Source of the DNA: a virus
Lineage: Duplodnaviria > Caudoviricetes
Strand: one strand, 5' to 3'
IMG/VR virus record: IMGVR_UViG_3300027917_004314
Length of the DNA: 64,000 nucleotides
The notes beneath the pieces were generated by a model. The model was not told the origin of the DNA, did not search any database, and worked only from the letters and a program-made list of their open reading frames with translations. The position numbers and the translations under genes are program-made. Of this stretch, positions 4,866 to 52,949 are shown in pieces (the stretch's first letter is position 1; every line of letters starts with the position of its first letter).

Positions 4866-6719
4866 ATGGCATTTAAACAAAAAAGAAACGCTTTAGACGA
4901 CTGGAAACCAGAAAATAGTTTTGATTCTCTTAAGAGAGAATTTATGAAGGTCGATCCAGTTACTTTTGCAGAGACTTTCCTCACTCTTGATGGAAAGCCT
5001 TTTCGTATTACGGGCAACGGATGGAAATTCATAGCGGATATATATAGACATATCTCTGTGGTTTCAATGTCGAATGAAGGTAAGCCGGTCGTAATAGTGA
5101 AAGGCAGACAGGTCGGCGCGACAACCATGGCGTCTGCCATGGAATTGCACATGGTGGCAAGCGGAACATACGGAAGAAACGGACAACCTCCTGTTAGGGT
5201 AATGCATGCGTTTCCACAGTTGGAAATGATGCACGGCTTTGCCAAAGATAAGCTGGAAAAAATGATTTTAGAATCAATACAAATTCCAGATTTTGATGAC
5301 AAACATAGTCCAGGCAAAATGAAACCCTTCATTAATGCTCAGAAGGATTCGGCTAGAGACGCCACTGATGCACTGCGATATAAACAATTCAAGTATGGAA
5401 ATACTTTGTGGTGCGAATCAATAGGTAACGAGGGGACGAGAGTTATAGGTAGAACTTTTGACGTTTGTTTCTTCGACGAAGTCCAAGATATGAGCGAGGT
5501 GGCAATAGCCAAGACAATCAAGTGCCTTACTCGCGCTCAACACGGACCACAGCCTGGTGGGGTGCAAGTATTTTTTGGTACCCCAAGACAAAAGGGAACT
5601 TTATTCCATAGAATGTGGGAAGACTCAGATCAGCGCAGATATTATTTAAAATGTGCTGATTGCAAAAATTATTTCCTATTGTATACTCCTGGCTCTGACA
5701 AATGGGAAGAAGAAATTTGGTTATATGAAAATATAGTAAAATGTCCCAGCTGCGGCCATGAACAAGATAAAGTTATGGCGATTGAACATGGCAAATGGCT
5801 CCCTACGCCGGGCAAAGAAGATTCTAACTACATAGGTTTTCATTTTAATCAGCTATTTATTCCAGAATTTACTAAAGAAGTGATAGTAAAGGAAAAGCCT
5901 GAGCATAACACTAGAAACTCAGAAATGATTTTCAACAATGAAGTGCTCGGGGAGTTTCATTCTGGTGCCGGCCTTCCCATCACATTTGAAGAAATTTATC
6001 GGATGTGTAAAGATCAAGACCGTTCAGTACCAAAATTCATACCGAAGGGGGAAAGGCTTTCATACCTCGGTATGGACTGGGGAGGTAAACCAGACATAGA
6101 CAACGTTAAGAGAGGTCAATCTTTTTCTTGTGGCGTTGTGTTGACCGTAGACCATGACGAGAGATATCTCGTAGAATTCGGAGAAAAACTGAAACGATTG
6201 GATCGTGAAAGTAAGATGAGTTTTGTTGATGAAATGTTTCGCATATACGGCGTTAAGAACGCTATGGGCGATATTGGCTTTGCAGAAGACATTACTAACG
6301 ACCTCAAAATGAAGTATGGCGAGAAATATAAAAGTGTTAGGAGTTCCGGGATGGTTTCTGGTGGTGTAAAATATAATAGAGATGAATTAGAAATAGTGGT
6401 AGACAAAGATAAAATTATTGGAGAAGTCTTTGAATTGCTGAGGAGAGGCAGAATTAGATTTCCTTGGGCAAGTTATGAAAAAATTGCGTGGCTGATTAGA
6501 CATTGTTGCTCTATGGAAAGCAAAATCGTCACTAGACAGGGTCAGCCGCATCAGACATATATGAAGGGCAAAGAACAAAACGACGGACTTATGGCACTGA
6601 TTTACGCTTATTTGGCTTACAAATTTGATAAAACTCGTGGTTTTAAAGTAAATCCGAACGTGCCCAGCAGCACTATATTTCCAAAACCAGTTCTTGCATA
6701 TATACCAAAAAATATATAG
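4866..6719 (+). CDS. terL: Terminase large subunit
   Basis: Walker A-like VKGRQVGATT, Walker B FFDEVQD, GTP coupling motif, CxxC..CxxC zinc site, RNase H-like GMDWGG nuclease motif. Confidence 0.93.
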   Translation: MAFKQKRNALDDWKPENSFDSLKREFMKVDPVTFAETFLTLDGKPFRITGNGWKFIADIYRHISVVSMSNEGKPVVIVKGRQVGATTMASAMELHMVASGTYGRNGQPPVRVMHAFPQLEMMHGFAKDKLEKMILESIQIPDFDDKHSPGKMKPFINAQKDSARDATDALRYKQFKYGNTLWCESIGNEGTRVIGRTFDVCFFDEVQDMSEVAIAKTIKCLTRAQHGPQPGGVQVFFGTPRQKGTLFHRMWEDSDQRRYYLKCADCKNYFLLYTPGSDKWEEEIWLYENIVKCPSCGHEQDKVMAIEHGKWLPTPGKEDSNYIGFHFNQLFIPEFTKEVIVKEKPEHNTRNSEMIFNNEVLGEFHSGAGLPITFEEIYRMCKDQDRSVPKFIPKGERLSYLGMDWGGKPDIDNVKRGQSFSCGVVLTVDHDERYLVEFGEKLKRLDRESKMSFVDEMFRIYGVKNAMGDIGFAEDITNDLKMKYGEKYKSVRSSGMVSGGVKYNRDELEIVVDKDKIIGEVFELLRRGRIRFPWASYEKIAWLIRHCCSMESKIVTRQGQPHQTYMKGKEQNDGLMALIYAYLAYKFDKTRGFKVNPNVPSSTIFPKPVLAYIPKNI

Positions 6720-6728
6720 AGGTGACTA

Positions 6729-8750
6729 ATGGTAAATAGAAGGAATGATCGAAAACCCGCTAAGATTAGGGTGACGCCAAGAAGGGCTGCTGACGTTACG
6801 GAGTATAGAAAGGCCGAACTTTCAACAGATGTAGACAATGGGATTATATCAGAAGGTACGAGTTATGCCGGTAGTCGACTTAACAGGAGTAATCCTACAG
6901 TTGAGAATGCGCCGCTTGACAGTGATAGGCTAAATCGTGGTGCATGGCTTTCGTCTGGAGACAAGACGATTACCGAAACAAGGAAGAAAGTTAGTTTGAT
7001 TAATGGCGGTGCATCAAAAACTGCCGTTGGTGCTGTTGCACATAGTGATACATATTTGAAAACAGCTGCAGCAGAAGCAGCCAGAGAGTTACAAAAAACC
7101 GCTGCCTCTGTTGGATCTGTAGGTGGAACGGCAGGCACCTCTGCGGGGAGCACTGTAGAGAGACTTGCCCCAGAAGTTTATAGTCCGCTATTCACTATGG
7201 CAAATCTTAATTTGCCTCGTGATAGGATAACTATCAATGCCTGGTGCAGAAATTTTTTCTTATTGCATCCAATAGTAAGAAACGCAATTACATTACATGC
7301 AACATATCCTATCAGCAAATTAAATATAAAATGCCAGGATAAAAGGGTACTTCAATTTCACGAAGACATGATAGAGGAAATGGATTTGATGGGCGCGCTT
7401 GGAGATATTTCTCTCGAGTACTGGAAATTGGGCGAATGTTTCCCATACGCCGAGCTAGATGAAGAAAGAGGAAAATGGTCCAAGATCGTAGTTCAGAACC
7501 CGGACTATGTTCATGTGAAGAAAACTGTACTATCAGGTGATCCCATTATATCGCTAAAGCCTGATGCTGTACTCCAGCGTCTTGTAATGAGCAATAATCC
7601 TGCAGACATGCGACTTAGAAGACAGATTCCGGAGAAAATTATCTATCACGTTAGAGCGCGCCAAGATATACCGCTTGATAACTTTAATGTCTCTCATCTA
7701 AAGTTGCTTTCTAGTCCATACGATGTGAGAGGTACAAGCATTATAGTTAGTGCATTTAAAGACCTCATGCTCTATGACAAAATTCGTGAATCCAAATTTG
7801 CACAAGCGGACTCAATGATTAATCCTATTACACTCATTAAAGTGGGTGGCAACGAAGATGGCGACTATAGAGCAACGCAAGAGGATTTAGAGTTCTTCCG
7901 TGAAATTTTTGAAGAAGCCGAGTATGATAAGAATTTCAAGCTTATTACGCATGCCGGCGTAAAAGTAGAGCGTGTTGGTTATACTGGACAAGTATTAGAA
8001 ATTTCTGGAGATATGGAACTTATTATCAAAAACATTTATACTGGTTTGATGGTTCCTCCGGCAGTCGTTGACACTGAAAGTGCTGTTTACGCATCTGCTT
8101 CTATCGGCTTGGAAGTGTTAAGGCAAAGGTATTTCAATTTTAGAAATATGATGGCCAAGTGGCTTGTAAATAAGATTTTTGCTCCTATTAGTGAAATTCA
8201 AGGTTTTTACGAGTATAAAAACAAAGAGAAAAGATTAATAGTTCCAGAAGTAGAGTGGAATCATATGAATCTCTATGATCTACAAGACTATATTTCAAAT
8301 ATTACTGGCATGGTAAGCTCGAAACAGGCCTCTGTTCAAACTTTGTACCGCAGCATGGGGCTTAACTATGAGGATGAGAAAATAAAGATGCGACAAGAAT
8401 CCATTGACGAAGCCATACGCAGAAGGGAAGAGATGGCTCTTGGAACTATGACACTTACTGAATTGCGTTCGCTGGATCCAGAAAAGCCAATTATGGAAGC
8501 CATTGATTCTAGGGAACGAGAAGCTGAGCCTGCTGTTCCACCAGAAGCTGGTATGCCGGCGGGCGTTATGCCGCCGGGAGCCGAGATGGGAGCTGGTCCG
8601 TTGGGAGGTCTGCCAGAACTTGCTCCTCCGCCAGGAGGAGCGTTGGAAACGCCCCCAGGTGCGGGAGCCCCTCCAGGTGCTGGAGTTACACCGCCACTAG
8701 GGCCTGGAACCCCTGGCGGAGCAGGTGGGCCAGGCGGGCTAGGTGTATAG
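6729..8750 (+). CDS. Portal protein
   Basis: Immediately after terL; HPIVRNAI, GECFPY, SPYDVRGTSII segments typical of portals; Pro/Gly low-complexity tail. Confidence 0.85.
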   Translation: MVNRRNDRKPAKIRVTPRRAADVTEYRKAELSTDVDNGIISEGTSYAGSRLNRSNPTVENAPLDSDRLNRGAWLSSGDKTITETRKKVSLINGGASKTAVGAVAHSDTYLKTAAAEAARELQKTAASVGSVGGTAGTSAGSTVERLAPEVYSPLFTMANLNLPRDRITINAWCRNFFLLHPIVRNAITLHATYPISKLNIKCQDKRVLQFHEDMIEEMDLMGALGDISLEYWKLGECFPYAELDEERGKWSKIVVQNPDYVHVKKTVLSGDPIISLKPDAVLQRLVMSNNPADMRLRRQIPEKIIYHVRARQDIPLDNFNVSHLKLLSSPYDVRGTSIIVSAFKDLMLYDKIRESKFAQADSMINPITLIKVGGNEDGDYRATQEDLEFFREIFEEAEYDKNFKLITHAGVKVERVGYTGQVLEISGDMELIIKNIYTGLMVPPAVVDTESAVYASASIGLEVLRQRYFNFRNMMAKWLVNKIFAPISEIQGFYEYKNKEKRLIVPEVEWNHMNLYDLQDYISNITGMVSSKQASVQTLYRSMGLNYEDEKIKMRQESIDEAIRRREEMALGTMTLTELRSLDPEKPIMEAIDSREREAEPAVPPEAGMPAGVMPPGAEMGAGPLGGLPELAPPPGGALETPPGAGAPPGAGVTPPLGPGTPGGAGGPGGLGV

Positions 8751-23801: not shown

Positions 23802-26800
23802 ATGGCCATATTTAAAACTGCTCAGTTGGAAGTTAGACAGGTACATAATACAGATTTAATGGCATCCTCCAAGCCCATGGAGGCTCTACTCCTTGGCTCT
23901 GAGGCAGCGAAAGCTGACGAACAAATAAAACAACGTTTTGTTAAATTCGCCCAACATTTGAAAAGAGTTGCGCCAAAGGCCAAGGATTTCCTGTACTTTA
24001 GTTGTATTATGATGCATGCAGCAGAGGCTGCACTAATTGATCAGAACACCGGCTTGCCGGTAAAGAATGGTGAAGACGAAGTTACGTCCGAATGGAAAAT
24101 AGATAACAAGGGATCCTGGAAATGGGCCTGTTCTGATCCGAACATTAAGCCTTATAAAAACAACAACGGCGATATTTTTCCAGAAGTAGAGCTTAAAAAA
24201 GCTTATAGAAAATGGATTGGTCGCCCCCTTTGCAAAGATCATCAAAGCGGTTCCGTTGATGGTATTCGTGGTATCATCGTAGATACTTATTATGATGACA
24301 AACGCAAAAGAGTTATTGCCCTATGCGCTCTGGATAAAATTAATTATCCAGATCTTGCTAGAAAAGTTTCTACAGGTTATGCTACAAATGTTTCTATGGG
24401 CACAGCAGTTGGCATATCTATCTGTTTTGAGTGTGGCAATATCGCAAGGGTAGAGGCCGATTATTGTCCATGCGTCAAAACTAAGAAAACTTATGGTGAA
24501 ATTAATATTGACCTCTCGCCCATTGAGTTGAGCCTGGTAGTCACGGGCGCAGATCCTCAAGCCAAATTGAGGAATGTAATCGCCAGTCTTGAAAAATATT
24601 CTAATGAAAAGGGTGAAAGAATTAAGGAACTTAAAAGAGCTGGTTGTGTTACACCAGATGAACTGACGAGGTTGGAGAATGAGATAGTTGATTTAAGGAA
24701 TACTGTGAGAGCAGCAACCAACCTCATGTTTTATAAAGCCGCAGCTGTTGGGCCTGGTGCTGAAAACATAGAACAGGCGAGGAATTTAGGAGAAGTTCTA
24801 AAACATCTGACCAGTCCAGAAGCAAGAAAAAAAGTCGAAAACATTATTACTTCTCTATTAGAAGAGGTCCCTGCAGAAGAGCCAGTTGAGGTGGAACCAG
24901 CAAGTGCTACTCCAAGCACCAAAGATATGGGAGATACTGAAAAAGGGTACACCGGATCCAACTCTGATACTGGACCGCCAGAGTGGTCACCAGAGAGAAC
25001 TGATATTATGAGAATGACCAGTGATAAAACTGCTGATTTAGGAATACAAATAAACGCTATTAATAAGAAGCTGGACGCCATGGAACTTGCACTTCGTGAC
25101 ATGGCAACGGGCGTCCAGGAAGTCACAACACATAAGGAGGAGCAATCAATGTCTGACAAAGAGCTTCGTCAAAGGGCAGCTGCCCGTCGTGCAATGTTTC
25201 AAAAATCTGCCTATCATCAGGGTGGGGGGGATTTGAATGATCCAGCTAATCTTCCATATCCCGTTGATCCATTGAATGATCAACTCAAGACGAAAGGAGA
25301 CAAGCAGATGGAGGGTCAGGGTATGGAGCCTGGAAATGATGGTCTGCACCCAGGTTATGACAGCTTTGGCCAATCCGAAGAGTCCCTAAAGAAAATGCTT
25401 TCTAGGGCTGAATTAGAAGAGAGAAAGATGCGCAGACACGCATTCATGAAGCAGGCTGAGGAGCCAGCGCAAGAGCTGGAGACCAAGAAAACGCCTAGCG
25501 GTGCCACCGTTGCAAAAACCCCGGACGGAAAGGTTATTATGCTTAACAATGATGGCACATACAATGAAGTGGACGATACCCAGATCCAACAGGCTAGAGA
25601 CCTAGTCAAAATGGTTGGTAGGGGCACTCCATCACCCACCAAGAAAGAAGCCTATTGGCAAGGTGGTGGCGGTGTTAATGAGCCACAAACTTATCCGGTT
25701 GACCCCATGAATGATAAGTTGAAAACTGATGGCGATAAGCAAATGGAAGGACAGGGTATGGAGCCAGGTAACGACGGCCTGCACCCAGGTTACCAGAGCT
25801 ATGGTAATGAAGAAGCTCTAAAAAAGAAGCTTCTCCGCGCTCAGCTTCGCGCTAAGTTTATTGTAGCCTACAAAAATGAAGATAAGACTGTCATTGACAA
25901 GAAAAATTCTCGTTGGGAAATCTATGCTGGCCCAGATAAGATTCTTGAGGCGACTGGCGCAGAGATCTACGAGGATGAGCTAGAACAGAATTGGGAATTG
26001 CTGGCGAGCAAAGAGTGGGGTCGCAAGGCAATCGCAGCTATTCGAGAGAAAGGTTTCGAACGTGTAGCATGGTTGTTGAAGGGAGAAAGTCTTGAAAAGA
26101 CTGCTCAGCCACCAATGCCTCCACCCACAGCAGGTGGCGAAAAGCCAATGCCGCCTCCTCCAGCAGTCGAAGGGCTACCAGAAGCTGCTCCTGAGGAAGA
26201 GGCGAAGGATCCTGTTCAATCAGCTCTAGATACGCTATCTGAGAGTTTGGAGAGCGCAGAGAAGGCTATGGGCGATCTTAAGGATGCCCTTGAGGAAGTA
26301 ACTGGCAAATCAGAAGGTGCTGAGCTTCCAGATGTTGGTGGCGCCGAGGCCGACGATGCAGAGCAACTTGCAATGGCAGAAGTCGCATCTCAGATCAAGG
26401 AAGTATATTCTGGCCTAGATGAAAGCGCAGATGAGCTGGCTATGCTAGCTGAGTCGCTTGAATCACGTTTCAAGGCTGGAAAGGGTTCAGAGGATGCGGT
26501 AACCGCCGAACTTCTTCGTCTTGCGCCTGAGGCAGTAAACGAGAGTGCTGAACTTCGCAGAGAAGCATCCCTTGTTATTGATGCCGCCAAGAAGAAAGAA
26601 AAGAAGGAAGAGGAAGAAGATGAAAAAGAGGAGAAAGAAGATGACAAGAAAGATAAGAAGGGCAAGGGCAAACTGCCGCCTGCTCTTGAAAAAGCTATAG
26701 AGAAGAAGAAAGAAAAGAAGGAAAAGAAAGAAGACAAGAAAGAAGATAAGGAAGAGAAAGAAGATGAGGAAGAGAAAGGGGAGAAAAAAGAAAAGAACAA

Positions 26801-27959
26801 CAATGGTAAAAAGAGCAAAGCAGAAGTTTTGTTAGAGAATCTGTTGAAGGCTCGTGCCGCAAAGCGTCGTGAGTTAGTCCGTGAGGCTGATGAAGAGGTG
26901 GCAGAGTCGTATGCTGCTGAAGGCATGACTAAAGCTGATGTTGAGAAGATTGTTAAAGACCTCCTAGATGAAATGGGCGTTACCTCGGAATTTATGAAAG
27001 AAGAAATGGAGGAACCAGAGCATGCTCCTGAGGAAGAGGCTCTTGTAGTAGAGGAGCCAGCCGGTGAGCTTGAAACTTTGATGGAAGGATCTCCAGAAGC
27101 GTCAGATGGCCTAGAACTCGAGCTTTCTCAGATGCTAGATGATTTGAATGCCCTAGAAGATCAGGCTGTAGAACAGGAGGCTGATAGTGTTCCTGTCCCA
27201 GTTGGTGATTTAACTGTCGATGCTGAAGCTCGTAAAGCATGGCGTGAGAGAGTAGCTGCTGAGGTTGGCGCCAAGTATCAACTTTCTCTTGATCAGGCTG
27301 TAACAGTTGATTCCGATATGCCAGCTAAGTTCCATCCACAAGGTGGCCACGATCTTGAAAGGTTGGACATTTCCCCATCCGATCAGGGAGCATATTTTGA
27401 GACTATCGTCGAGCAGCATGATAAAATCATGAAGGAAGTTCAGAATCTTCCAAAAGTTAGAGAAGCCATGGAGCATCTGGGCGGGCTGCTTAAGAATGGT
27501 ACGCTGACCATTGATGATCTAGACGATGTTAAGAAGTTGAAGGCACTTGCGGTGGATCCTGAAGCTGCCAAGTATTGGAAAACCTACTTTGGTGAGGGAG
27601 ACGCCGAAAGCAAGAAATTTGGAAACGAACTCACTCAAGAATATACAAAGAAGAAGTCTGAGGCAAATCTAGACGAACAGCGCGTGAAACTGAGCAGAGC
27701 ATATGACATCGCTCTTGATATGCAAGAAAAGGGCATGATAGCTGACGATCGCGCAACCTTGGAAAAGCAAGTTAATGAGATTATGAGCTTTGATAACAAG
27801 AGCTTTGAATCTTTCAAACGTGCACTTTCCCGTGTAGCTAAGCCAGCACAGGTAAAAACAGCAGCTCCGGCACTTAATGTTGGGGTTAGCTCTGAAGATT
27901 TGGGCGAAGGAGTGACTTCTCCAGAGAACCTGGCAGATCAGCTTAGGAAAATGTGGTAA
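23802..27959 (+). CDS. Prohead (maturation) protease fused to long scaffold
   Basis: NNNGDIF..ELKKAY..WIGRPLCKDH, VSMG (putative Ser), CxxC insertion, IELSLV..GADPQA; followed by acidic coiled-coil, K/E-rich tract and internal duplication. Confidence 0.85.
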   Translation: MAIFKTAQLEVRQVHNTDLMASSKPMEALLLGSEAAKADEQIKQRFVKFAQHLKRVAPKAKDFLYFSCIMMHAAEAALIDQNTGLPVKNGEDEVTSEWKIDNKGSWKWACSDPNIKPYKNNNGDIFPEVELKKAYRKWIGRPLCKDHQSGSVDGIRGIIVDTYYDDKRKRVIALCALDKINYPDLARKVSTGYATNVSMGTAVGISICFECGNIARVEADYCPCVKTKKTYGEINIDLSPIELSLVVTGADPQAKLRNVIASLEKYSNEKGERIKELKRAGCVTPDELTRLENEIVDLRNTVRAATNLMFYKAAAVGPGAENIEQARNLGEVLKHLTSPEARKKVENIITSLLEEVPAEEPVEVEPASATPSTKDMGDTEKGYTGSNSDTGPPEWSPERTDIMRMTSDKTADLGIQINAINKKLDAMELALRDMATGVQEVTTHKEEQSMSDKELRQRAAARRAMFQKSAYHQGGGDLNDPANLPYPVDPLNDQLKTKGDKQMEGQGMEPGNDGLHPGYDSFGQSEESLKKMLSRAELEERKMRRHAFMKQAEEPAQELETKKTPSGATVAKTPDGKVIMLNNDGTYNEVDDTQIQQARDLVKMVGRGTPSPTKKEAYWQGGGGVNEPQTYPVDPMNDKLKTDGDKQMEGQGMEPGNDGLHPGYQSYGNEEALKKKLLRAQLRAKFIVAYKNEDKTVIDKKNSRWEIYAGPDKILEATGAEIYEDELEQNWELLASKEWGRKAIAAIREKGFERVAWLLKGESLEKTAQPPMPPPTAGGEKPMPPPPAVEGLPEAAPEEEAKDPVQSALDTLSESLESAEKAMGDLKDALEEVTGKSEGAELPDVGGAEADDAEQLAMAEVASQIKEVYSGLDESADELAMLAESLESRFKAGKGSEDAVTAELLRLAPEAVNESAELRREASLVIDAAKKKEKKEEEEDEKEEKEDDKKDKKGKGKLPPALEKAIEKKKEKKEKKEDKKEDKEEKEDEEEKGEKKEKNNNGKKSKAEVLLENLLKARAAKRRELVREADEEVAESYAAEGMTKADVEKIVKDLLDEMGVTSEFMKEEMEEPEHAPEEEALVVEEPAGELETLMEGSPEASDGLELELSQMLDDLNALEDQAVEQEADSVPVPVGDLTVDAEARKAWRERVAAEVGAKYQLSLDQAVTVDSDMPAKFHPQGGHDLERLDISPSDQGAYFETIVEQHDKIMKEVQNLPKVREAMEHLGGLLKNGTLTIDDLDDVKKLKALAVDPEAAKYWKTYFGEGDAESKKFGNELTQEYTKKKSEANLDEQRVKLSRAYDIALDMQEKGMIADDRATLEKQVNEIMSFDNKSFESFKRALSRVAKPAQVKTAAPALNVGVSSEDLGEGVTSPENLADQLRKMW
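25203..25847 (+). repeat. Two ~70-aa coding repeats in the scaffold (25203-25415, 25644-25847)
   Basis: KSAYHQGGG..YPVDPLNDQLKTKGDKQMEGQGMEPGNDGLHPGY and KEAYWQGGG..YPVDPMNDKLKTDGDKQMEGQGMEPGNDGLHPGY. Confidence 0.95.
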
Positions 27960-29775: not shown

Positions 29776-30141
29776 ATGACTTTTTCAAAAGAGGATAAGG
29801 CTGCGTGGCTCAATAGCGAGGTTATGCAAGAGCTTGAAAAACTTGGTGAGAGCGTCCTTAATGGGCCACCTCCCGAGGCTTTCGAGCCGCTAGAGAATGT
29901 TGCAGCTGCTGAAACATGGGAAGACGAAGACTTGGAAGAAAAAATAACTGAAGCCGTTAAAGAATTTGAGCAGCCTGTAGTTCCAATTGAGAAAGAGTTT
30001 GTTGTTGCGTATAACAAGCGTCTTCTTGCAAACATAGAAAAGATTGCGTATCATCTATCAGACAAAAAAAACATTACGGCTGCATATAGAGTAGAACAAT
30101 CATTAAGACAACTTAAAGCTTTGTTGCGGGAGGAAAATTAA
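29776..30141 (+). CDS. Small scaffold-like protein: WxxSEVMQE leader + helical hairpin
   Basis: GGAGG RBS; AAWLNSEVMQELEK resembles the start of 34046; ends right after the hairpin tag. Confidence 0.75.
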   Translation: MTFSKEDKAAWLNSEVMQELEKLGESVLNGPPPEAFEPLENVAAAETWEDEDLEEKITEAVKEFEQPVVPIEKEFVVAYNKRLLANIEKIAYHLSDKKNITAAYRVEQSLRQLKALLREEN

Positions 30142-32892
30142 ATGCGCAATTTAAATATAGGCGGATCTTGGGAGGAAGAGTTCTATAAGATAGCATCTGA
30201 GAAAGGATGGATCGTAAAAGAAGCTGTTGAGCCCGAGCCCGCAACAGCACAAGAAGAAGGTTTGGAGTTCGAGCCGACTGTGGTTAGTGTGCCTAGGGCT
30301 GGGAAAACTATTTGGGATTTGCAGCAGATTCTTCAAGTAACGGTACCTACCATGCCGCTTAGCAAAGAGGGGGGGCCGGATGGTAAGTGGGGTCCTATGA
30401 CAGCCAGAGCATGGAATGCGCTGGCTAGTCAAGTTAACGCCAAGAAGGGAGATTTGGTGTTGACGGATGTCAACCCAGATGGTAGCGAACTTCCGATTTT
30501 AGACCAAATGAGGTGGGTTATAGCAGGGATGCCAAGTGGCACTTCCGAAGATATAGTTAAGGAGCTTCAAGGTGCCGGTGCTGCTGCAAAGGTGGACGAT
30601 GATATGAAAACTACAGCCTTTATAGTTCAAGAACTGATTTCTTTAGCTGGCGACCTAGAAGAAATGGGAGAAGTCGAGGCCGCTGTAGCTGTCGATAAAC
30701 AAATATCCATTTATAAGGAAGCGCTGGATAAGTTGTATGATGTAACTGGTGAAACAGGAGAACAGCTTGTCGAGCAGGCTCATCCGGGCGGCGGCCCTAC
30801 TATTGTCCCGGCAAAGGAAGAGGGCGGCAAAGTCGAGACTATTGTAGAAGAACAGAAGAAAAGTATCGACAAGGCAACTAAGAAGCCTACTGGTAAATAT
30901 GCCCAACTGATGCTTAATCTAATTGCTACCGCCAATAGCCTTGAGGATGAGGGTAGGACAGAAGAAGCCCAAATGGTGGATCAAACATTACGAGAACTGT
31001 TAGAGACACCCCCTTTCGCGGGTAGGGGTACAGCTTCCGAGACGGCTGGCTCCGAGGATTCGAAAGTCTCGGGCTTAGAGAAAACAGCGTTTATACAAGA
31101 GGGCATTCCTAGCGATATTAAAGACTTTCTCGGTCACCTTCGAGAGGATAAAGGAAATGTTGATAGGTTATATTGGCCTGCAATGGATGGGGTTATAAAC
31201 AAGCTTTCTCCACACATTGCCATATTTGAAAGAGTCGAAAAGTTAGATTTTACTAAAGAAGCAAATGTTAAGAAAGCTCAAAGAGCGGCTGTATTGTTGT
31301 ATAAAACTTTATTGCAGGCGCTTGGACCGGTATATACCATTGCAGAAAATAACAGATTATTAAGTAGAGGTATGATTCTTAAAAAGAGATTTTATGATAT
31401 TTTTACCTCTTTGAAGGAATTGCTTAGCGGTGCCTCATATGCAGCTAAAGAATTTGGTCCGAAAAAAGCTCCAAAACCGGCTCCGGCTGTCGCCAAGAAG
31501 CCTGAGTCTCAAATCCTTAGAAATTATAGGTCTGCTTTGCGAAGAGTGCTTAAAGTAATGGAAAACCCTGATTATAAGCTTCTGAATATTCTTGGTAAGG
31601 GTGATAGAAAAGCTGGCAGGCGCAAAGCTTTTGAAATTGAGAATATAATAAAAACAGAACTAAAGAAACACTACGATAAAATCCAGGCTGGAGACAGACT
31701 CGATGCGCTTTATAACAAAACTATAAAGCCCCTACAGACCCATGGAATTATTATTGCCTCGGCAAAGGAAGAGCTTGTAAAGGAAGCTGATCTTGGAATT
31801 TCTATTGCACCCAAGGAAAAGCCATCAAAGAAAAGGCCCGCGAAAGGTAAAGCCGTAGAGATAGATCCATTGGTGAAGACGTTTCAACAGGCAGCGATGG
31901 CGCTACATGGGCCAAATGCAGTCGGACCAAAGAAAGATGATGGTAAGTGGGGGCCTAGCACGAAAGGTGCCTATGAAAAGGTGATGGCTGAACTTCGTAA
32001 GGTAAAGCCAGATGCAAAAGTTTTCCCGGCACAACCAACGCCGCAATCGTTGAACTGGGGTATATATATTGCAGAACGGTTGGCTCAAATGAAAGGTGCT
32101 GCTCTTGGTTTGCCGCAAGATATGGACATTCCATATACAGATAAAATAAAGTTCAAGCTTAGAGAACTCGCAGATCCGAGAGCTTTTCTTACTACACTAG
32201 CTGGATTTAGGACGCAAAATGTTCTACCCGATGTACATACCGGAGAAGAAACCGCAGAAGCTTTTACAATACTTGCAAAGTTGTATAACAAACTTACTAG
32301 AGGCAAGGAATATAGAGAAAATCTAACGTTTAGTAGTGGAGTTGTCGGAGTTGCCGACAAGGCCGCAAAAGTTGTTTTTGATACTTTTAAGCAATTATAT
32401 AACATGCCTGGTGGCAAACAGAGTTATGAGGGATTGGTTAAAAAGAGAACGCCCGCAGCAAAAAAGGCTCCAAAGAAAACTCCAGAAGCACGCATGGATT
32501 TGTCATGGGCGGCACCAGGGCGCGAAAGAACCGAAGAGTTAGATACACCAGATAAAGTCGCTGTAGCGATTCGCGGATTGCCATTTATGGAGTTCTTGGC
32601 TCAAGTAGATGCATTTGAAGAAATCGCTTTGAACGCATCTAGATATGACAAAAGTCTTCGTGGATTTTGGGGCGAGACGGTTCCATATGGAAGTGAAACT
32701 CCCAAACAACGAAGAGAAGTGGCAAGGAAATTTTTGAAAAAACTTAAGACCAGAGCTGGACGTCTATATAGCGCTTTGGGCAGGGTTCAAGGAGAGTTTT
32801 TAGCTAAATATAACAAAAGGGATTTCTTAAATTTTGTACACCACATGCAGACTTATTTTGTAGCATTGAGGCAATTAGCAGAGGCATTATGA
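30142..32892 (+). CDS. Putative ejection/internal protein with two hairpin tags, two PG-binding-like motifs and candidate -1 frameshift
   Basis: DGKWGPMT and DGKWGPST motifs; tags at 30634 and 30919; C_CCT_TTC at 31011. Confidence 0.75.
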   Translation: MRNLNIGGSWEEEFYKIASEKGWIVKEAVEPEPATAQEEGLEFEPTVVSVPRAGKTIWDLQQILQVTVPTMPLSKEGGPDGKWGPMTARAWNALASQVNAKKGDLVLTDVNPDGSELPILDQMRWVIAGMPSGTSEDIVKELQGAGAAAKVDDDMKTTAFIVQELISLAGDLEEMGEVEAAVAVDKQISIYKEALDKLYDVTGETGEQLVEQAHPGGGPTIVPAKEEGGKVETIVEEQKKSIDKATKKPTGKYAQLMLNLIATANSLEDEGRTEEAQMVDQTLRELLETPPFAGRGTASETAGSEDSKVSGLEKTAFIQEGIPSDIKDFLGHLREDKGNVDRLYWPAMDGVINKLSPHIAIFERVEKLDFTKEANVKKAQRAAVLLYKTLLQALGPVYTIAENNRLLSRGMILKKRFYDIFTSLKELLSGASYAAKEFGPKKAPKPAPAVAKKPESQILRNYRSALRRVLKVMENPDYKLLNILGKGDRKAGRRKAFEIENIIKTELKKHYDKIQAGDRLDALYNKTIKPLQTHGIIIASAKEELVKEADLGISIAPKEKPSKKRPAKGKAVEIDPLVKTFQQAAMALHGPNAVGPKKDDGKWGPSTKGAYEKVMAELRKVKPDAKVFPAQPTPQSLNWGIYIAERLAQMKGAALGLPQDMDIPYTDKIKFKLRELADPRAFLTTLAGFRTQNVLPDVHTGEETAEAFTILAKLYNKLTRGKEYRENLTFSSGVVGVADKAAKVVFDTFKQLYNMPGGKQSYEGLVKKRTPAAKKAPKKTPEARMDLSWAAPGRERTEELDTPDKVAVAIRGLPFMEFLAQVDAFEEIALNASRYDKSLRGFWGETVPYGSETPKQRREVARKFLKKLKTRAGRLYSALGRVQGEFLAKYNKRDFLNFVHHMQTYFVALRQLAEAL
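31011..31073 (+). promoter_or_regulatory. Candidate programmed -1 ribosomal frameshift signal (slippery heptamer + pseudoknot)
   Basis: In-phase C_CCT_TTC 31011-17; 7-nt spacer; stem 31025-35/31044-53; loop CCGAGAC pairs with GTCTCGG 31066-72; -1 TAG at 31023-25. Confidence 0.65.
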
Positions 32893-34046
32893 CCAATATA
32901 TTAACTACTAATAATGACAAGCAAATTATTAGAGAAGCTGACATGTTGGCAAATTTTGTATCTGGTGCTTTAGGTAGAGTTAAAGACGATATCAATTTAA
33001 GGGAGAAGCCCTTTGAGACAATCTTCACCGTAATGACTCCAGTAATTGCCCTCAGGTTTGGGTTTCTTTTAGGTAGTATTATAATTGCCGCTGATTATGC
33101 ATTTGGTGCTGGGCCAAGTGCTCTTGGAAGGATGATAGACAACTACCTCAAGATGGGTGGCGCAAAAGACGTGGCGCAAATGGATCTTTCGGAATCTAAC
33201 CTTGAAAAGGCATCAACGTTTTCTCTAGGACAAATTTGGTCTACGCTACAGTCGAAAGCAGGATTAGAATCTAAATCAACGCTTCAAGATATTATGATGG
33301 TTAAAGGATGTATTACACCAAATGACGTAAAGACAGCCTTTTACGTTGGTTTATATAAAGAATCTCAACCTTGGGGATATAGAAGGCCTTGGTTTGGTAG
33401 TAGATATTCGAGGTATTGGGGTACCAGAAGTGGATTTTTTAGAAGGTTTATGAGTGGTGTAAGGTATGGTGGTAGGCTCCCATTTTTCTCAGCTGCACTG
33501 CTTGGATTGTTAAAAGCAGTTGCTAGCGGCTTGGCGATTTTTATGTTGACCGGCGGCGTTGCTAAAATGGTTGGTCTTAAGAGCAAAAAAGAACGGGAAA
33601 TCCGTAAAGAGACTCCATCTGCTTTCAAGTTTCATGATGACGATCCGTTGCTTCCTAGCAAACTGAAGTCTCAGACAATGCAATATTATTCTAATGTTGC
33701 AGGAGATGTAGAAGATACATTAATAAAATTTTTGGATACTTCGGTAGCCAATTTTTCTAGAGCTTTTCAATCTGTAAATGGAATGCCACTAAAGGGCTCG
33801 GCAAAAATGAAATCTGTTTTACAAGATGTAGAGCTTTTAAATTGGGGCACTTTAAATGAGATTAATAAAAGAAAAGCATTTGTGGCTCCAAGAGTAATTA
33901 ATTTGGCGAAAAAATTATTACCAGAAGCACAATATGAAAGAGTTAAAGCGACACCATTGATAAAGAAGAAGCCGTTGCCGACACCAGTTGAAAAAGAATC
34001 GCCAAAAATTGAGGAGTTGTCGGGACTTCTTCAAGGAGCGCATTAA
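32889..34046 (+). CDS. Putative membrane-spanning ejection protein
   Basis: Two long hydrophobic Gly/Ala-rich segments and an Arg/aromatic-rich tract; lies among tagged internal proteins. Confidence 0.6.
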   Translation: MTNILTTNNDKQIIREADMLANFVSGALGRVKDDINLREKPFETIFTVMTPVIALRFGFLLGSIIIAADYAFGAGPSALGRMIDNYLKMGGAKDVAQMDLSESNLEKASTFSLGQIWSTLQSKAGLESKSTLQDIMMVKGCITPNDVKTAFYVGLYKESQPWGYRRPWFGSRYSRYWGTRSGFFRRFMSGVRYGGRLPFFSAALLGLLKAVASGLAIFMLTGGVAKMVGLKSKKEREIRKETPSAFKFHDDDPLLPSKLKSQTMQYYSNVAGDVEDTLIKFLDTSVANFSRAFQSVNGMPLKGSAKMKSVLQDVELLNWGTLNEINKRKAFVAPRVINLAKKLLPEAQYERVKATPLIKKKPLPTPVEKESPKIEELSGLLQGAH

Positions 34047-35440
34047 TGTACAAAGAATGGGAAAGCAGCGGCGTTATGCAAGAATTTCTAAAAGTCGCTG
34101 CAAAATCGGGTTTGATAACATCAGATCTACAACAAAAAGAACTAGCTGGTAATGCCGACGAGGAGACGCCTGTAAAAGATCACAGGAGATATGAACCTAC
34201 CGAAGAATACGAGCTAGAGGTAGAGGGTGGAAATTTAGTTGAGAAAGCTCACCCAGAACAAGCGTGGACGGCCAAACAAAGTCCCATAATGAATAGTATG
34301 GGCGAAGGAAGTCTTGTAGAAAACATTGAAGAACAGCAAAAAAAAGATATCGAGGTCGCAACCAAGATGCCTAGCGGCGCATTGCCTGGCATTCATGCCT
34401 CGATGGTTTCTGAGTTGATTAAACTTGCTGATCGGCTTGATGGAGAAAACAAGACTAAAGAAGCAGCAAGAATTGATGAAACGATTGAGAGGCTTGGCCG
34501 CCTCCCTTTCGCCGATAGCCGCCCGCGCATTAAAGAAGGCGGTTGGTTTGCGCCAATCGTACTTTTAATTACTACTGTAGCACCACTCGCTTGGGATTAT
34601 TTTTTTAACAAAGGTAAAATAACAACCACTAAAGGCAAACCTGATGTGGGGAAAGGTAGAGTTGTTAGGACAAGGAAAGCTCCAATGGGTAGGGTTGGCA
34701 AAGTTATTACCACAATAGGACTTGGTTTATCAGCGTTAACCTTGCTAGGAAAAAAGATCACAAGCGTGCAAGAAGGCATTAAAAAAGACACGAAAGATCT
34801 ACATGATGTGCTACAAAAGGCAGCACCAGAATCAGCTGCAGCAGCTCAGGCTGCGGCGAAATTAGCACCATATATCAAAGAACTTGAACAAAAGCCAACA
34901 AAGCCAGAAGATTATACGAGATATCGGCAAAAGGTTATAGAACTTAAGAGCTTATTGCCATCTATCAGGAAACACATAGACGACGCATTGTCTACTGACA
35001 TCGAGGCTGGCCTTTGGACATGGACAGGGTTAGATTTACACTCTAGAATAGCTGAAAAATTGAATACTTGGGAAGCCGACCTGGAAGCCGTAAAAACGAA
35101 GGGGGCTAGGTTAGATGCTGTGGCGGCAGAAGAATATCGACGGACGCCAATGGTTATGGAGGGCGTTTATGGTTTGCAACAAGTGCTAACACTAAATGGT
35201 CTGCTTTCTAAAAATCAAATAAGTGGTGCGATGGATGATGTGACGCTTAAAGCGACACAGCAGCTAGAGAAACGCTTAGACACAGACACTGATACTCTCT
35301 ATAGTAAGAAAATTATTAGGCGAAAACCAAAGGATGGTTTTGCTGGCAAAATAGTTAGAAACGGCCAATTGGTTATGAGACCTGAAAAATTGCAGAGGAT
35401 CATAAGTCTTATAGACCAACTTAAAGCCAAAATGGGTTAA
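34046..35440 (+). CDS. Putative ejection/internal protein, N-terminal paralogue of 30142, candidate -1 frameshift
   Basis: WESSGVMQE leader, AHP..ATKMPSG module, LIKLADRLDG tag, C_CCT_TTC at 34504, hydrophobic segments, PG-binding-like LQQVL..SGAMDDVT. Confidence 0.75.
   Translation: MYKEWESSGVMQEFLKVAAKSGLITSDLQQKELAGNADEETPVKDHRRYEPTEEYELEVEGGNLVEKAHPEQAWTAKQSPIMNSMGEGSLVENIEEQQKKDIEVATKMPSGALPGIHASMVSELIKLADRLDGENKTKEAARIDETIERLGRLPFADSRPRIKEGGWFAPIVLLITTVAPLAWDYFFNKGKITTTKGKPDVGKGRVVRTRKAPMGRVGKVITTIGLGLSALTLLGKKITSVQEGIKKDTKDLHDVLQKAAPESAAAAQAAAKLAPYIKELEQKPTKPEDYTRYRQKVIELKSLLPSIRKHIDDALSTDIEAGLWTWTGLDLHSRIAEKLNTWEADLEAVKTKGARLDAVAAEEYRRTPMVMEGVYGLQQVLTLNGLLSKNQISGAMDDVTLKATQQLEKRLDTDTDTLYSKKIIRRKPKDGFAGKIVRNGQLVMRPEKLQRIISLIDQLKAKMG
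34504..34553 (+). promoter_or_regulatory. Candidate programmed -1 ribosomal frameshift signal
   Basis: In-phase C_CCT_TTC 34504-10; stem AGCCGCC/GGCGGTT 34517-23/34538-44; loop GCGCA pairs with TGCGC 34549-53; -1 TAG at 34516-18; GAGG 11 nt upstream. Confidence 0.6.
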
Positions 35441-35617: not shown

Positions 35618-36271
35618 ATGGCTCTTTATATTTACCAGTCAGGAGTCCAACCACTAGGACAGTTTGACGCTCTAGATGGCTATCTCGACGGAACTTATGA
35701 CACCATCCTTGGTGGTGAAATTGGCACCGTTTTCGCAGCTGCTAGGACCGTTTCCGCCAGCGAAAAAGCCGCATACGACGTACTTGATGGTTATACCAAC
35801 GCAACTGATCAGTACCGCCCTGCGATCGCTAACAGTATTGATGCATCTACTACACGCCCACTATGGCTACTTGATGATGGTACAGCCGGATATGGCACTC
35901 TGTTTGGCCAGGTAATTGGTACTCCAGTCGGACTTTCCACCACTGGAACCAATCTCGGACCTCACACCGCTGCTGCAAGTGGCAAGGTCACTTGTTGGGA
36001 CAAGCCAGGTCTTTACGCAGTTTCTGTTGACGCAGTTGACACTTCTGCCGACGGTCTGGTACTCACCAACGTTAATTGTGACCCCGCTGCTGCGATTCAG
36101 CCACAGCATGATGGTACTCTGACCGTATCTACAGCTTCTACTGCTGTTGATGTCACAGTTGGTCGATTCATGGAATTTGAGACAAGCCCGTTCTTGGTAA
36201 CCACTCCACCTTCATTGGTCGGTGCTACCGAAGCGGCAGTAAGAGTTGTATTTAGCTACATGGTAGAGTAA
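35618..36271 (+). CDS. Head decoration/cement-like protein (paralogue 2)
   Basis: GGAGG RBS; directly upstream of MCP; ILGGEIG..LLDDG..SGKVTCW..PGLYAV parallels 29070. Confidence 0.7.
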   Translation: MALYIYQSGVQPLGQFDALDGYLDGTYDTILGGEIGTVFAAARTVSASEKAAYDVLDGYTNATDQYRPAIANSIDASTTRPLWLLDDGTAGYGTLFGQVIGTPVGLSTTGTNLGPHTAAASGKVTCWDKPGLYAVSVDAVDTSADGLVLTNVNCDPAAAIQPQHDGTLTVSTASTAVDVTVGRFMEFETSPFLVTTPPSLVGATEAAVRVVFSYMVE

Positions 36272-36367: not shown

Positions 36368-37399
36368 ATGTCGTTATTTAGTACATATGGAAAACAAGGC
36401 GAGCTGAATGCGAGTTCCGTTAGAGATGCTCTTGCGAACATTGTGAAGTACGCTAGCGTACTTGACGATTTGGCCCCTGCAAACCAGGGTCTAGCGCAAC
36501 AGCCATCCTATACGGATGATCAGCGTAACGAGCTTATTAAGCGCGCTTTGATGACGCAAGAAGGCAAGATTGCTCTTGGCCAGGCAATGGCCAATCCGAT
36601 CCGCAGAAACTTGGATTATCAAGGAGTGGGCCGGAGAGTTTTGGTTGTCGACCCGTTGCCCCAAGGTGCTCTTCCTGTATACGACCGCGATATCGATGTC
36701 GCAGCTACCGTTGTTTCTAGCAATGGTTCTGCTCCAGAGAGCCGCGTGTTCGGTGACAGGGTGACTGTACCTGAGTTTGAGGTTGTTTCTAATCCTACTG
36801 TGCGTATTGCTGAGGTAAGAAGGCGTCGTTTTAACGTGATCGACCGTGCTCAGCAGAAGGCAAGGCAAGAGATCCAGGCACAAGAAGATGCTAACATTTT
36901 CGCGTCCCTCGATTTCGCAGCCGATGCAACGCTTGGTGGAGAGAACACTGCCCAGGATATTGCTGATGCGGGACTTCTAAAGCGTGACCTTTCCGAGATT
37001 AAGGTTCAGGTAGACCGTTGGGACCTTGTAACTACTAAGTTCCTCATGAATATCATTGAATTTAATGACATTCTGAATTGGGCAACTGGTGGTGGCCAAG
37101 GATCTAATGGCGGCGAGGTTGATCCTGTTACGATGAGAGAGATCCTTCAGACTGGTCTATATGCCCACATCTGGGGTGCAGACATCATCGTTTCTAAGAT
37201 CGTCCCAGTCGGAACCGTTTTCGGAACCGCCGATCCAGAGTTCGTAGGTGTTATGCCTGTCCGTCAGGACATCGAGGTACTACCTGCCGATGAGCCCAAG
37301 CAGCTAAAGCTTGGTTGGGTTATCTCTGAGATCATCGGAATCGGCATCGTCAACCCACGCGGTTGCGCTGTTGGTCGTAAGTCTGTTGCTGTTGGCTAA
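36368..37399 (+). CDS. Major capsid protein (HK97 fold)
   Basis: Strong AGGAGG RBS; 343 aa; follows decoration gene; RRNLDYQG..DPLPQGALPVYD, FNVIDRAQ..IQAQED, GWVISEIIGIGIVNP pattern; strong terminator after. Confidence 0.88.
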   Translation: MSLFSTYGKQGELNASSVRDALANIVKYASVLDDLAPANQGLAQQPSYTDDQRNELIKRALMTQEGKIALGQAMANPIRRNLDYQGVGRRVLVVDPLPQGALPVYDRDIDVAATVVSSNGSAPESRVFGDRVTVPEFEVVSNPTVRIAEVRRRRFNVIDRAQQKARQEIQAQEDANIFASLDFAADATLGGENTAQDIADAGLLKRDLSEIKVQVDRWDLVTTKFLMNIIEFNDILNWATGGGQGSNGGEVDPVTMREILQTGLYAHIWGADIIVSKIVPVGTVFGTADPEFVGVMPVRQDIEVLPADEPKQLKLGWVISEIIGIGIVNPRGCAVGRKSVAVG

Positions 37400-52295: not shown

Positions 52296-52531
52296 TAGTT
52301 AAGAAATATATAACGTATTTGGGTATAGAGAAACCATCAACCCCCGCTCAAGTAAATATGGAAATAAGCGGATTAAAACATGCTATTAGAGTGGCAGAGG
52401 AAATGATAGCTAGTTTGGAACAATCTCTAGCAATAGTTGATCTAAGACAAGAGGAGATGACGCTTAATGAAAAAACACAAAAAGAGGGCACAAATTCGAA
52501 AGTTAGTACAAAAATTGAAGAGACAACTTAA
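52292..52531 (+). CDS. Small coiled-coil protein
   Basis: ATGA overlap; heptad segment. Confidence 0.5.
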   Translation: MIVKKYITYLGIEKPSTPAQVNMEISGLKHAIRVAEEMIASLEQSLAIVDLRQEEMTLNEKTQKEGTNSKVSTKIEETT

Positions 52532-52949
52532 AAAAGAAGACCCTTTTTTAGACAAGTGTAAAAAGTATAATAGAGATCCAGACTTCGTGGATAGTGTAAA
52601 AATTAGTTTTGAGCCTCTAGATGTGTCCGCCAAAACGATAAATGGCGATATTATCATAAATGAACAGCTCTTAGATGCGGGAGATTGGGATGACATTATG
52701 CGATATGTCGTACATGAAATGACACACGTGATGCAACAAGAGGCTGGCAAGGTTGATGGGGTTATAGATGAAGCTGATTATCTGGAAGATGAGAATGAGA
52801 TTGAGGCATTCAATGCACAGATGGAGTACATGGATGAGCATGTGCCTAAAGAAGAGTTGCAAGAGTACCTGGAAAATCTGCTTGACCACCACGGGGTAGA
52901 AGGGAAAGAAAGAAGAAAAGTGTTACGAACTCTAACAAAAGATATTTAA
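52467..52949 (+). CDS. Zincin-like metallopeptidase
   Basis: VVHEMTHVMQQ plus downstream YL...EIEAF third-ligand motif; GAGGAG RBS. Confidence 0.75.
   Translation: MKKHKKRAQIRKLVQKLKRQLKKEDPFLDKCKKYNRDPDFVDSVKISFEPLDVSAKTINGDIIINEQLLDAGDWDDIMRYVVHEMTHVMQQEAGKVDGVIDEADYLEDENEIEAFNAQMEYMDEHVPKEELQEYLENLLDHHGVEGKERRKVLRTLTKDI

Follow-up and report, generated by a model that had tools for sequence, protein, structure and literature searches.

Gene P0001 lies in a 64,000-nucleotide stretch of DNA (hereafter the window, meaning the whole stretch that was analysed) from a tailed-phage record of IMG/VR, and part-way along it a slippery heptamer stands almost directly before a stop in the -1 frame. 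The question that this locus raises is whether ribosomes are programmed to change frame there, allowing one gene to specify both a short and a long protein. On the comparative sequence evidence given below, we consider it very probable that the site at 34504 works as a programmed -1 ribosomal frameshift signal and that this signal is of the canonical bacterial type. The elements of the site are as follows, with lengths in nucleotides (nt) or amino acids (aa).

34046..35440, + strand: gene P0001, with a 0-frame product of 464 aa
34487..34492, + strand: Shine-Dalgarno (SD)-like GAGAGG, the end of its GAGG lying 11 nt from the heptamer
34504..34510, + strand: slippery heptamer C_CCT_TTC, Leu-Pro-Phe in the 0 frame, the proposed site of tandem -1 slippage
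34516..34518, + strand: -1 stop TAG, which would end a 157-aa product (...LPFRR)
34518..34543, + strand: predicted hairpin GCCGCC (34518-23) / GGCGGT (34538-43), with a loop of 14 nt and a spacer of 7 nt from the heptamer
34525..34553, + strand: candidate second stem of a loose pseudoknot, GCGCA (34525-29) / TGCGC (34549-53), seen as complementarity only

Direct reading of positions 34502-34519 gives CTC CCT TTC GCC GAT AGC, and checking against the start at 34046 places the heptamer in phase as X_XXY_YYZ, as the first-pass annotation of this DNA had claimed. In the -1 frame the same bases read CCC TTT CGC CGA TAG, with two sense codons (Arg-Arg) after the heptamer and then the stop. The predicted -1 product thus consists of residues 1-153 followed by PFRR, 157 aa in all, and our reading of both frames agrees with the two lengths first proposed, 157 and 464 aa.

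In the mechanism that we favour, CCU would occupy the P site and UUC the A site, and both transfer RNAs (tRNAs) would re-pair one base back, on CCC and UUU. The slip would be promoted by the SD-like GAGAGG at its 11-nt spacing upstream and by the hairpin starting 7 nt downstream. Ribosomes that slip would add Arg-Arg and terminate at the TAG at 34516-18; the 157-aa protein set free would comprise nothing but the N-terminal module and would finish right after that module's helical hairpin. Ribosomes that do not slip would carry on to the end of the 464-aa protein, where a hydrophobic helix and a helical C-terminal domain follow the module. Two products would then come from a single gene in a fixed ratio, as in Escherichia coli dnaX.

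The heptamer and the -1 stop among relatives

A protein search returned 34 homologues of P0001 at 25-73% identity, 32 of which were aligned (alignment A1). A first single-sequence scan of viral contigs gave no relatives; alignment-based scans of viral and metagenome contigs did find them, at 133 loci. A profile of the N-terminal module was run on all open frames of these 133 loci and the nucleotides at the module end of each instance were read. The resulting table holds 50 distinct sites from IMG/VR and metagenome contigs with guanine-cytosine contents of 31-62%, drawn from two paralogous families, that of P0001 and that of P0002, which is encoded further upstream in the window. Two sites found afterwards, in loci L100 and L020, bring the total to 52; unless the 52 are named, counts below refer to the tabulated 50.

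Every tabulated site reads NNC CCT TTY (CCCTTTC in 29, CCCTTTT in 21), and the two later ones carry one C_CCT_TTC and, in L100, one C_CCT_TTA. The codon before the proline specifies 10 different amino acids (CTC, CGC, TTC, TAC, GAC, ATC, TGC, AAC, CCC and CAC), with C as its third base in 50/50, and the proline codon itself is CCT in 50/50, with neighbouring third positions fully mixed. The base directly 3′ of the heptamer, position 34511 in the window, is G at 43 of the 50 homologous sites, which may represent a context effect on slippage. As controls, two other invariant prolines of the module were read in the same sequences, and both use all four codons (CCA 18, CCT 12, CCG 11 and CCC 6 at the first; CCT 19, CCA 18, CCC 7 and CCG 5 at the second). 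Codon usage in these genes, where CCT accounts for 12-62% of proline codons and C-ending codons for 4-35%, puts the naive joint probability of the invariant positions at about 1e-35. Of the roughly 163 Pro-Phe dipeptides found elsewhere in these loci, only 4 coincide with the heptamer. Together, the codon and proline controls rule out three explanations, namely biased codon usage, common ancestry of sites not yet saturated, and selection on the protein; mere shared ancestry is argued against because other synonymous sites are saturated. Across the family, the alignment comparison shows the signal to be under strong purifying selection at the nucleotide level.

These results bear directly on the possibility that Pro-Phe has been kept for protein reasons and that the heptamer is a coincidence of chance and codon bias. 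Pro-Phe is indeed conserved at the protein level, and in the window CCCTTTC occurs 11 times against 10.3 expected; the bare motif is not enriched, a point against a functional signal, and with its count at expectation the window alone cannot decide. Such a coincidence is contradicted by the codon-usage, internal-proline and Pro-Phe-dipeptide controls, by the variable preceding residue with its invariant third-position C, and by L100, where the 0-frame residue has changed from Phe to Leu and the slippery pattern has been kept. We assign it a practically negligible probability.

The -1 stop has been maintained in a similar manner. Counting from the heptamer start, the first -1 stop falls 2-4 codons on at 45 of the 50 sites and at codon 8 in two more, compared with 21% of control codon positions of the same genes having a stop within the same 2-4 codons (p = 3e-25). 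Over the 50 sites the stops are TAA (19), TAG (18) and TGA (13), in different registers, and they arise from varied 0-frame residues (e.g. TTT GAx giving TGA and xxT AGx giving TAG), which indicates that the -1 stop is maintained independently of the protein sequence. From the two cassettes in the window, the first-pass annotation had argued that a -1 stop kept despite a residue change speaks for selection on the RNA signal, and had staked that reading on conservation of the heptamer and the -1 stop in orthologues. The wider comparison bears out both, with C_CCT_TTY kept at all 50 tabulated sites, nearby stops of three types, and a control frequency of roughly a fifth.

Loci with inverted frames and the putative stimulatory elements

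Five of the 52 loci (L017, L098 and L022 among the tabulated sites, and the later L100 and L020) have an inverted layout, in which the 0 frame meets a stop 6-10 codons past the heptamer and the -1 frame runs on uninterrupted for 457-576 codons. This -1 frame is blocked 1-9 codons before the heptamer in L017, L098 and L022, and no ATG, GTG or TTG occurs in its first 21-40 codons. A VSPL[YHS]K motif directly follows the heptamer in the -1 frame at all five, and the three compared -1 open reading frames (ORFs) share a mutual identity of only 21-27%. When the L017 module is joined to the -1 frame at the heptamer, the resulting protein aligns end to end with a single-ORF homologue in L016 (E 8e-94), in which the VSPL motif is read in the 0 frame. 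By this frame layout and this alignment, the long protein of the inverted loci could be made only by a -1 shift at the heptamer, and we therefore regard the need for the shift in some relatives as shown at the level of their reading frames. As a side observation, the 0-frame stop of three extending loci (TAA in AATAA; L017 6411-6440, L098 6420-6450 and L100 2826-2860) lies in the loop of a predicted downstream hairpin.

Two further loci depart from the common pattern. L036 has ACT TTT TTT TTA AAT AAA at the homologous place (842-860), a T9 run that contains three overlapping slippery heptamers and is followed at once by a -1 TAA; frameshifting at an alternative signal, or slippage in transcription, could occur there. 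The P0001 orthologue of L013 (5968-7212) has neither Pro-Phe nor heptamer, its module running straight into the hydrophobic helix, and the sister gene on the same contig retains the heptamer (site L013 2814).

One possible alternative is that the heptamer works only in the extending lineages and that the window carries an inherited remnant from which no meaningful short product is made. Only the five inverted loci allow the need for the shift to be demonstrated directly, and L013 has lost the site and yet kept the gene, both of which would suit a relic. A relic, however, would be expected to decay as other synonymous sites have done, and the 47 truncating sites, whose proteins are 25-70% identical, keep the heptamer at otherwise saturated synonymous positions together with a -1 stop within 2-8 codons that is formed from differing codons. 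We regard a relic as very unlikely.

Turning to the elements that could stimulate the shift, a GAGG or GGAG ends 6-16 nt upstream of the heptamer at 27/50 sites, compared with 7% of control positions (p = 6e-18); 24 of these have a spacing of 11 nt, and the rest mostly one of 10 or 12 nt. Neighbouring gene starts carry GGAGG-type ribosome-binding sites, indicating that the host uses Shine-Dalgarno pairing. The GAGG 11 nt upstream, initially put forward as an SD-type stimulator from the window alone, is thus position-specific and enriched among homologous sites. Downstream structure was assessed with RNAfold on 45 nt starting 4 nt after the heptamer, in comparison with other windows of the same gene. 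The 34504 site folds at -14.1 kcal/mol against -5.8 +/- 3.2 in its own gene (2nd percentile), and across the family the mean z is -1.6, with 48% of sites in the lowest 5% of own-gene windows. Subgroups of the P0001 family have strong but differing stems, e.g. GGCCTCC/GGAGGCC and GGCCGTCTT/AAGACGGCC, and the VSPL clade has a hairpin of its own with compensatory changes in 4/8 pairs. The first-pass annotation had proposed a stem plus a loop pairing at 34504: the stem is predicted to be unusually stable, but GCGCA/TGCGC, complementary as it is, is left without comparative support; the closest relatives differ in sequence there.

There are several points besides the motif count that weigh against a programmed frameshift. 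The statistics overstate the independence of the sites, as the sequences are related, and part of the GAGAGG signal is explained by conserved Glu-Arg residues. The hairpin at 34504 is a single-sequence prediction, and about a quarter of the sites have no notable downstream structure. A single hairpin common to all 26 group-A (P0001-family) orthologues was considered and rejected, with 60% of positions paired against 58% in shuffles. Finally, the efficiency of this motif class was measured in E. coli, and the tRNA and anti-SD properties of the phage's own host are assumed.

The structure at the site also admits another role at the RNA or DNA level, such as a programmed stall of translation ahead of the hydrophobic helix, recognition by an RNase or a binding protein, or recombination by which the module is shuffled, with frameshifting incidental. 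The site stands exactly at a domain boundary at which the module is joined to unrelated C-terminal parts, and the downstream structure could equally cause pausing. None of these roles accounts at once for the strict phase of X_XXY_YYZ, for the selection on the -1 stop and for conserved protein that continues in the -1 frame from the heptamer at five loci, and at L036 what has been substituted is a different slippery run rather than a similar sequence; we give these roles a very slim chance. The manner of recoding could likewise differ from that proposed, through single-tRNA slippage on U_UUC alone, slippage during transcription, or a -1 shift brought about by a phage factor instead of the cis elements described above. 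In E. coli, H_HH.U_UU.Y motifs are among the most efficient -1 heptamers, with C_CC.U_UU.C singled out as high-level, and a U_UU.Y tetramer by itself is prone to slip if accompanied by a stimulator (PMC4066793). The T9 run of L036 could slip in transcription. Only tandem slippage requires the C_CC of the heptamer, and yet this part is invariant (50/50); a run of three T is too short for transcriptional slippage. A different mode of recoding is, in our judgement, highly improbable.

A second cassette of the proposed frameshift type lies upstream in the window.

30142-32892, + strand: paralogue P0002, 916 aa
31011..31072, + strand: sister cassette, with heptamer 31011-17, -1 TAG 31023-25 and an H-type pseudoknot

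The sister heptamer (31011-31017) is also in phase, and its -1 reading is CCC TTT CGC GGG TAG. Its pseudoknot (S1 31025-34/31045-53, S2 31037-43/31066-72) has 94% of cells paired in 9 orthologues of the P0002 family, compared with 24-45% in slid controls, and shows compensatory changes in 4 pairs. An upstream GAGG/GGAG is absent here and present at 34504. P0001 and P0002 are 41% identical over about 97 aa, with the homology ending exactly at P-F-A. The two cassettes, described at first as independent, are not so; they are homologous, inherited with the shared domain. The nucleotides said to be shared after the heptamer amount to a CGC common to the two window copies that is not conserved in orthologues, where only the heptamer and a nearby -1 stop are. 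The earlier count of two in-phase heptamers on the + strand holds for these cassettes; a third, C_CCT_TTT at 52541-52547 (+ strand), lies in an ORF at 52467-52949 (160 aa, ...KKEDPFLDK...) with a -1 stop 6 codons on. This third heptamer is probably fortuitous, because chance alone yields the heptamer at about 2.5% of the Pro-Phe dipeptides in these loci.

Genomic setting and the possible role of the module

The window comprises bases 64001-128000 of the 161-kb record IMGVR_UViG_3300027917_004314, whose DNA comes from a marine-sediment metagenome. Among public runs, the site is covered by the source marine-sediment DNA sample only, no RNA run being among them, and it shows no variants or indels. 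The P0001 gene lies among these genes of the window:

4866-6719: large terminase, first in the gene order of the head module
6729-8750: portal, after the large terminase
between the portal and the 1385-aa protein: a 2718-aa protein
23802-27959: a 1385-aa protein with a prohead-protease domain, upstream of the paralogues
between the protease-domain protein and the 217-aa gene: unannotated genes, including both paralogues
35618-36271, + strand: a 217-aa gene, by synteny the counterpart of the phage G capsid-decoration gene gp26
36368-37399, + strand: major capsid protein gene (phrog_2522 major head protein, E 1.4e-76)

The capsid protein (36368-37399) is 54% identical to gp27 of Bacillus phage G, and the order terminase-portal-protease-capsid identifies the region as the head-morphogenesis module of a phage-G-like huge phage. 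Protein search found an identical P0001 protein encoded on a contig of 460,921 bp. IMG/VR labels the 161-kb record as a provirus that is 40% complete; the provirus label is doubtful, because of the identical protein on that much longer contig and the phage-G-like huge-phage gene content. PHROGs and Pfam gave no match for the four genes spanning 29776-35440. No relative of P0001 or its domain was found in GenBank phages by megablast or tblastn, and the family therefore has no known cultured model. The complete Bacillus phage G record, searched with a profile, yielded a match at chance level only, and no homologue of the module was detected there.

The N-terminal module of P0001 (residues 1-153) consists of a leader, AHP, VEN and MPxG motifs, and a helical hairpin at 116-152, and after the site come a linker, a hydrophobic helix and a C-terminal helical domain (240-464). 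In an AlphaFold2 model the N-terminal region is largely disordered or of low confidence, with a short leader helix. The hairpin at 116-152 (predicted local distance difference test score, pLDDT, about 78) ends just before Pro154-Phe155 and is followed by a disordered linker, the hydrophobic helix and then a confident all-helical domain at 240-464 (pLDDT about 90). Foldseek comparison of this model with PDB and BFVD gave no meaningful match, and a predicted complex of the hairpin region (90-157) with the capsid protein gave no answer and is evidence neither way.

A short conserved motif, L-x-K-E followed by A or G, lies 8-9 codons past the site (34520-34540, residues 159-165), and the inverted loci carry it in the -1 frame.

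34535..34537, + strand: Glu164 of the L-x-K-E motif (followed by A or G), 9 codons after Phe155 (alignment A1)

The P0002 family has A-S-E followed by A or T as a counterpart. This is a candidate cleavage site for the prohead protease, at which the N-terminal module would be released.

A clue to the role of the module comes from distant phages (L023-L050 and L099-L132), in which it forms the extreme C-terminus of proteins of 500-1100 aa and lacks Pro-Phe (e.g. L026 4135-6318). The next gene there has its own ribosome-binding site and is a homologue of 35618-36271, and the capsid gene follows. This slot is the usual position of a scaffolding protein. In the window, the P0001 gene likewise sits between the protease-domain gene (23802-27959) and the capsid gene (36368-37399), with the 217-aa gene and the capsid gene directly downstream of it, an order and synteny repeated in the distant phages. 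This scaffold-slot position, together with a -1 product that would end after the hairpin, leads us to propose a scaffold-like, capsid-targeting function for the module. The scaffolding protein of phage P22 has a C-terminal helix-turn-helix domain that binds coat protein. By functional analogy, the hairpin stands at the extreme C-terminus of the protein encoded just upstream of the capsid gene in the distant relatives and the -1 product would end likewise; the two differ in that no sequence or fold match was obtained. A suggested homology between the module and a C-terminal portion of the 1385-aa protease protein (27306-27449) was rejected, since the right motif was aligned but at a non-significant hhalign E of 0.1.

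29776..30141, + strand: a gene of 121 aa, its end lying 5 residues beyond a similar helical hairpin

Residues 80-116 of this gene product resemble the P0001 hairpin (117-153) at an hhalign E of 0.0015. The likeness of the -1 product to this gene, pointed out in the first-pass annotation, is weakly supported by this similarity; orthologues of gene 29776 do match the domain model at the leader and the hairpin. Gene 29776-30141 may encode a natural module-only protein.

Putting these observations together, we tentatively suggest, as a possible scenario that we do not favour over others, that a clade of uncultivated huge phages follows a strategy like that of retroviral gag/gag-pol. The module would be the ancestral coat-binding end of a scaffold, and a -1 shift at its end would set the ratio of free module to module plus cargo. 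This short-to-long ratio would fix the amount of cargo-bearing protein entering the prohead, and the cargo, a membrane-active or internal head protein, would be released by the prohead protease at L-x-K-E. The cassette would have been copied to at least two cargo genes, and flips between truncating and extending layouts would have retuned cargo dosage. If the module is indeed a capsid-targeting scaffold element, the system would show how very large capsids dose internal proteins.

Relation to known frameshift systems

The frameshift site of E. coli dnaX combines a -1 shift and a near-immediate -1 stop with an SD-like element about 10 nt upstream and a downstream hairpin. The 34504 site has the same truncating layout, in which the short and long products begin with a common N-terminal part, and the heptamer, SD-like element and predicted hairpin are all present. 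It differs in its heptamer (C_CCU_UUC instead of A_AAA_AAG) and in belonging to a phage head-module gene rather than a cellular replication gene; products and efficiency have been measured for dnaX. In lambda G/GT and in retroviral gag/gag-pol, a -1 shift sets the ratio of a short assembly protein to a C-terminally extended one with the same N-terminal part, and the extending layout of L017, L098, L022, L100 and L020 is exactly of this kind. The genes described here occupy the scaffold slot of a head module, not a tail module, they have no sequence relationship to those systems, and in the window the shift shortens the product.

As cited in PMC5221750 and PMC10885494, T7 10A/10B and the major head protein of Lactobacillus phage A2 likewise use a -1 frameshift to make two virion-related products. 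These resemble the present case as -1 frameshifts in head-morphogenesis genes and differ from it in that the shift extends the capsid protein itself; P0001 is not the capsid protein, and its shift truncates. Transposase signals of the IS3/IS911 families pair a heptamer with an upstream SD-like element and a downstream hairpin or H-type pseudoknot (PMC4066793). The same combination of elements is found here, with a predicted hairpin at 34504 and a classical pseudoknot at the sister site 31011, but the transposase signals give an extending OrfAB fusion, mostly at A_AAA_AAG-type heptamers, in a mobile element rather than a virion gene.

Programmed frameshifts annotated in tailed phages are nearly all in tail-assembly-chaperone genes, with few in capsid, lysin or other genes (PMC10885494, PMC5221750). 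We found no report in the literature searched of frameshifts in this gene family or in the head modules of jumbo or huge phages. Here a familiar mechanism turns up in a gene family and setting that are new for it: the frameshift cassette is conserved, belongs to a huge-phage head module and occurs in two paralogous gene families, and the coexistence of truncating and extending layouts within one family is unusual. For annotation, gene callers will miss the short product and will report the inverted relatives as a 150-aa gene and a 500-aa orphan that has no start. The 52 natural C_CCU_UUN variants, with their differing stimulators, also constitute a resource for studies of frameshift tuning.

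Phage G has an annotated joined coding sequence of its own, gp22/gp23 'endolysin', between its portal and capsid genes (L137 10565-12234; NC_023719.1 19865-21534). It bears no relation to the P0001 family, and its shift site is A_AAA_AAG at L137 11302-11308, with a TAG directly after it.

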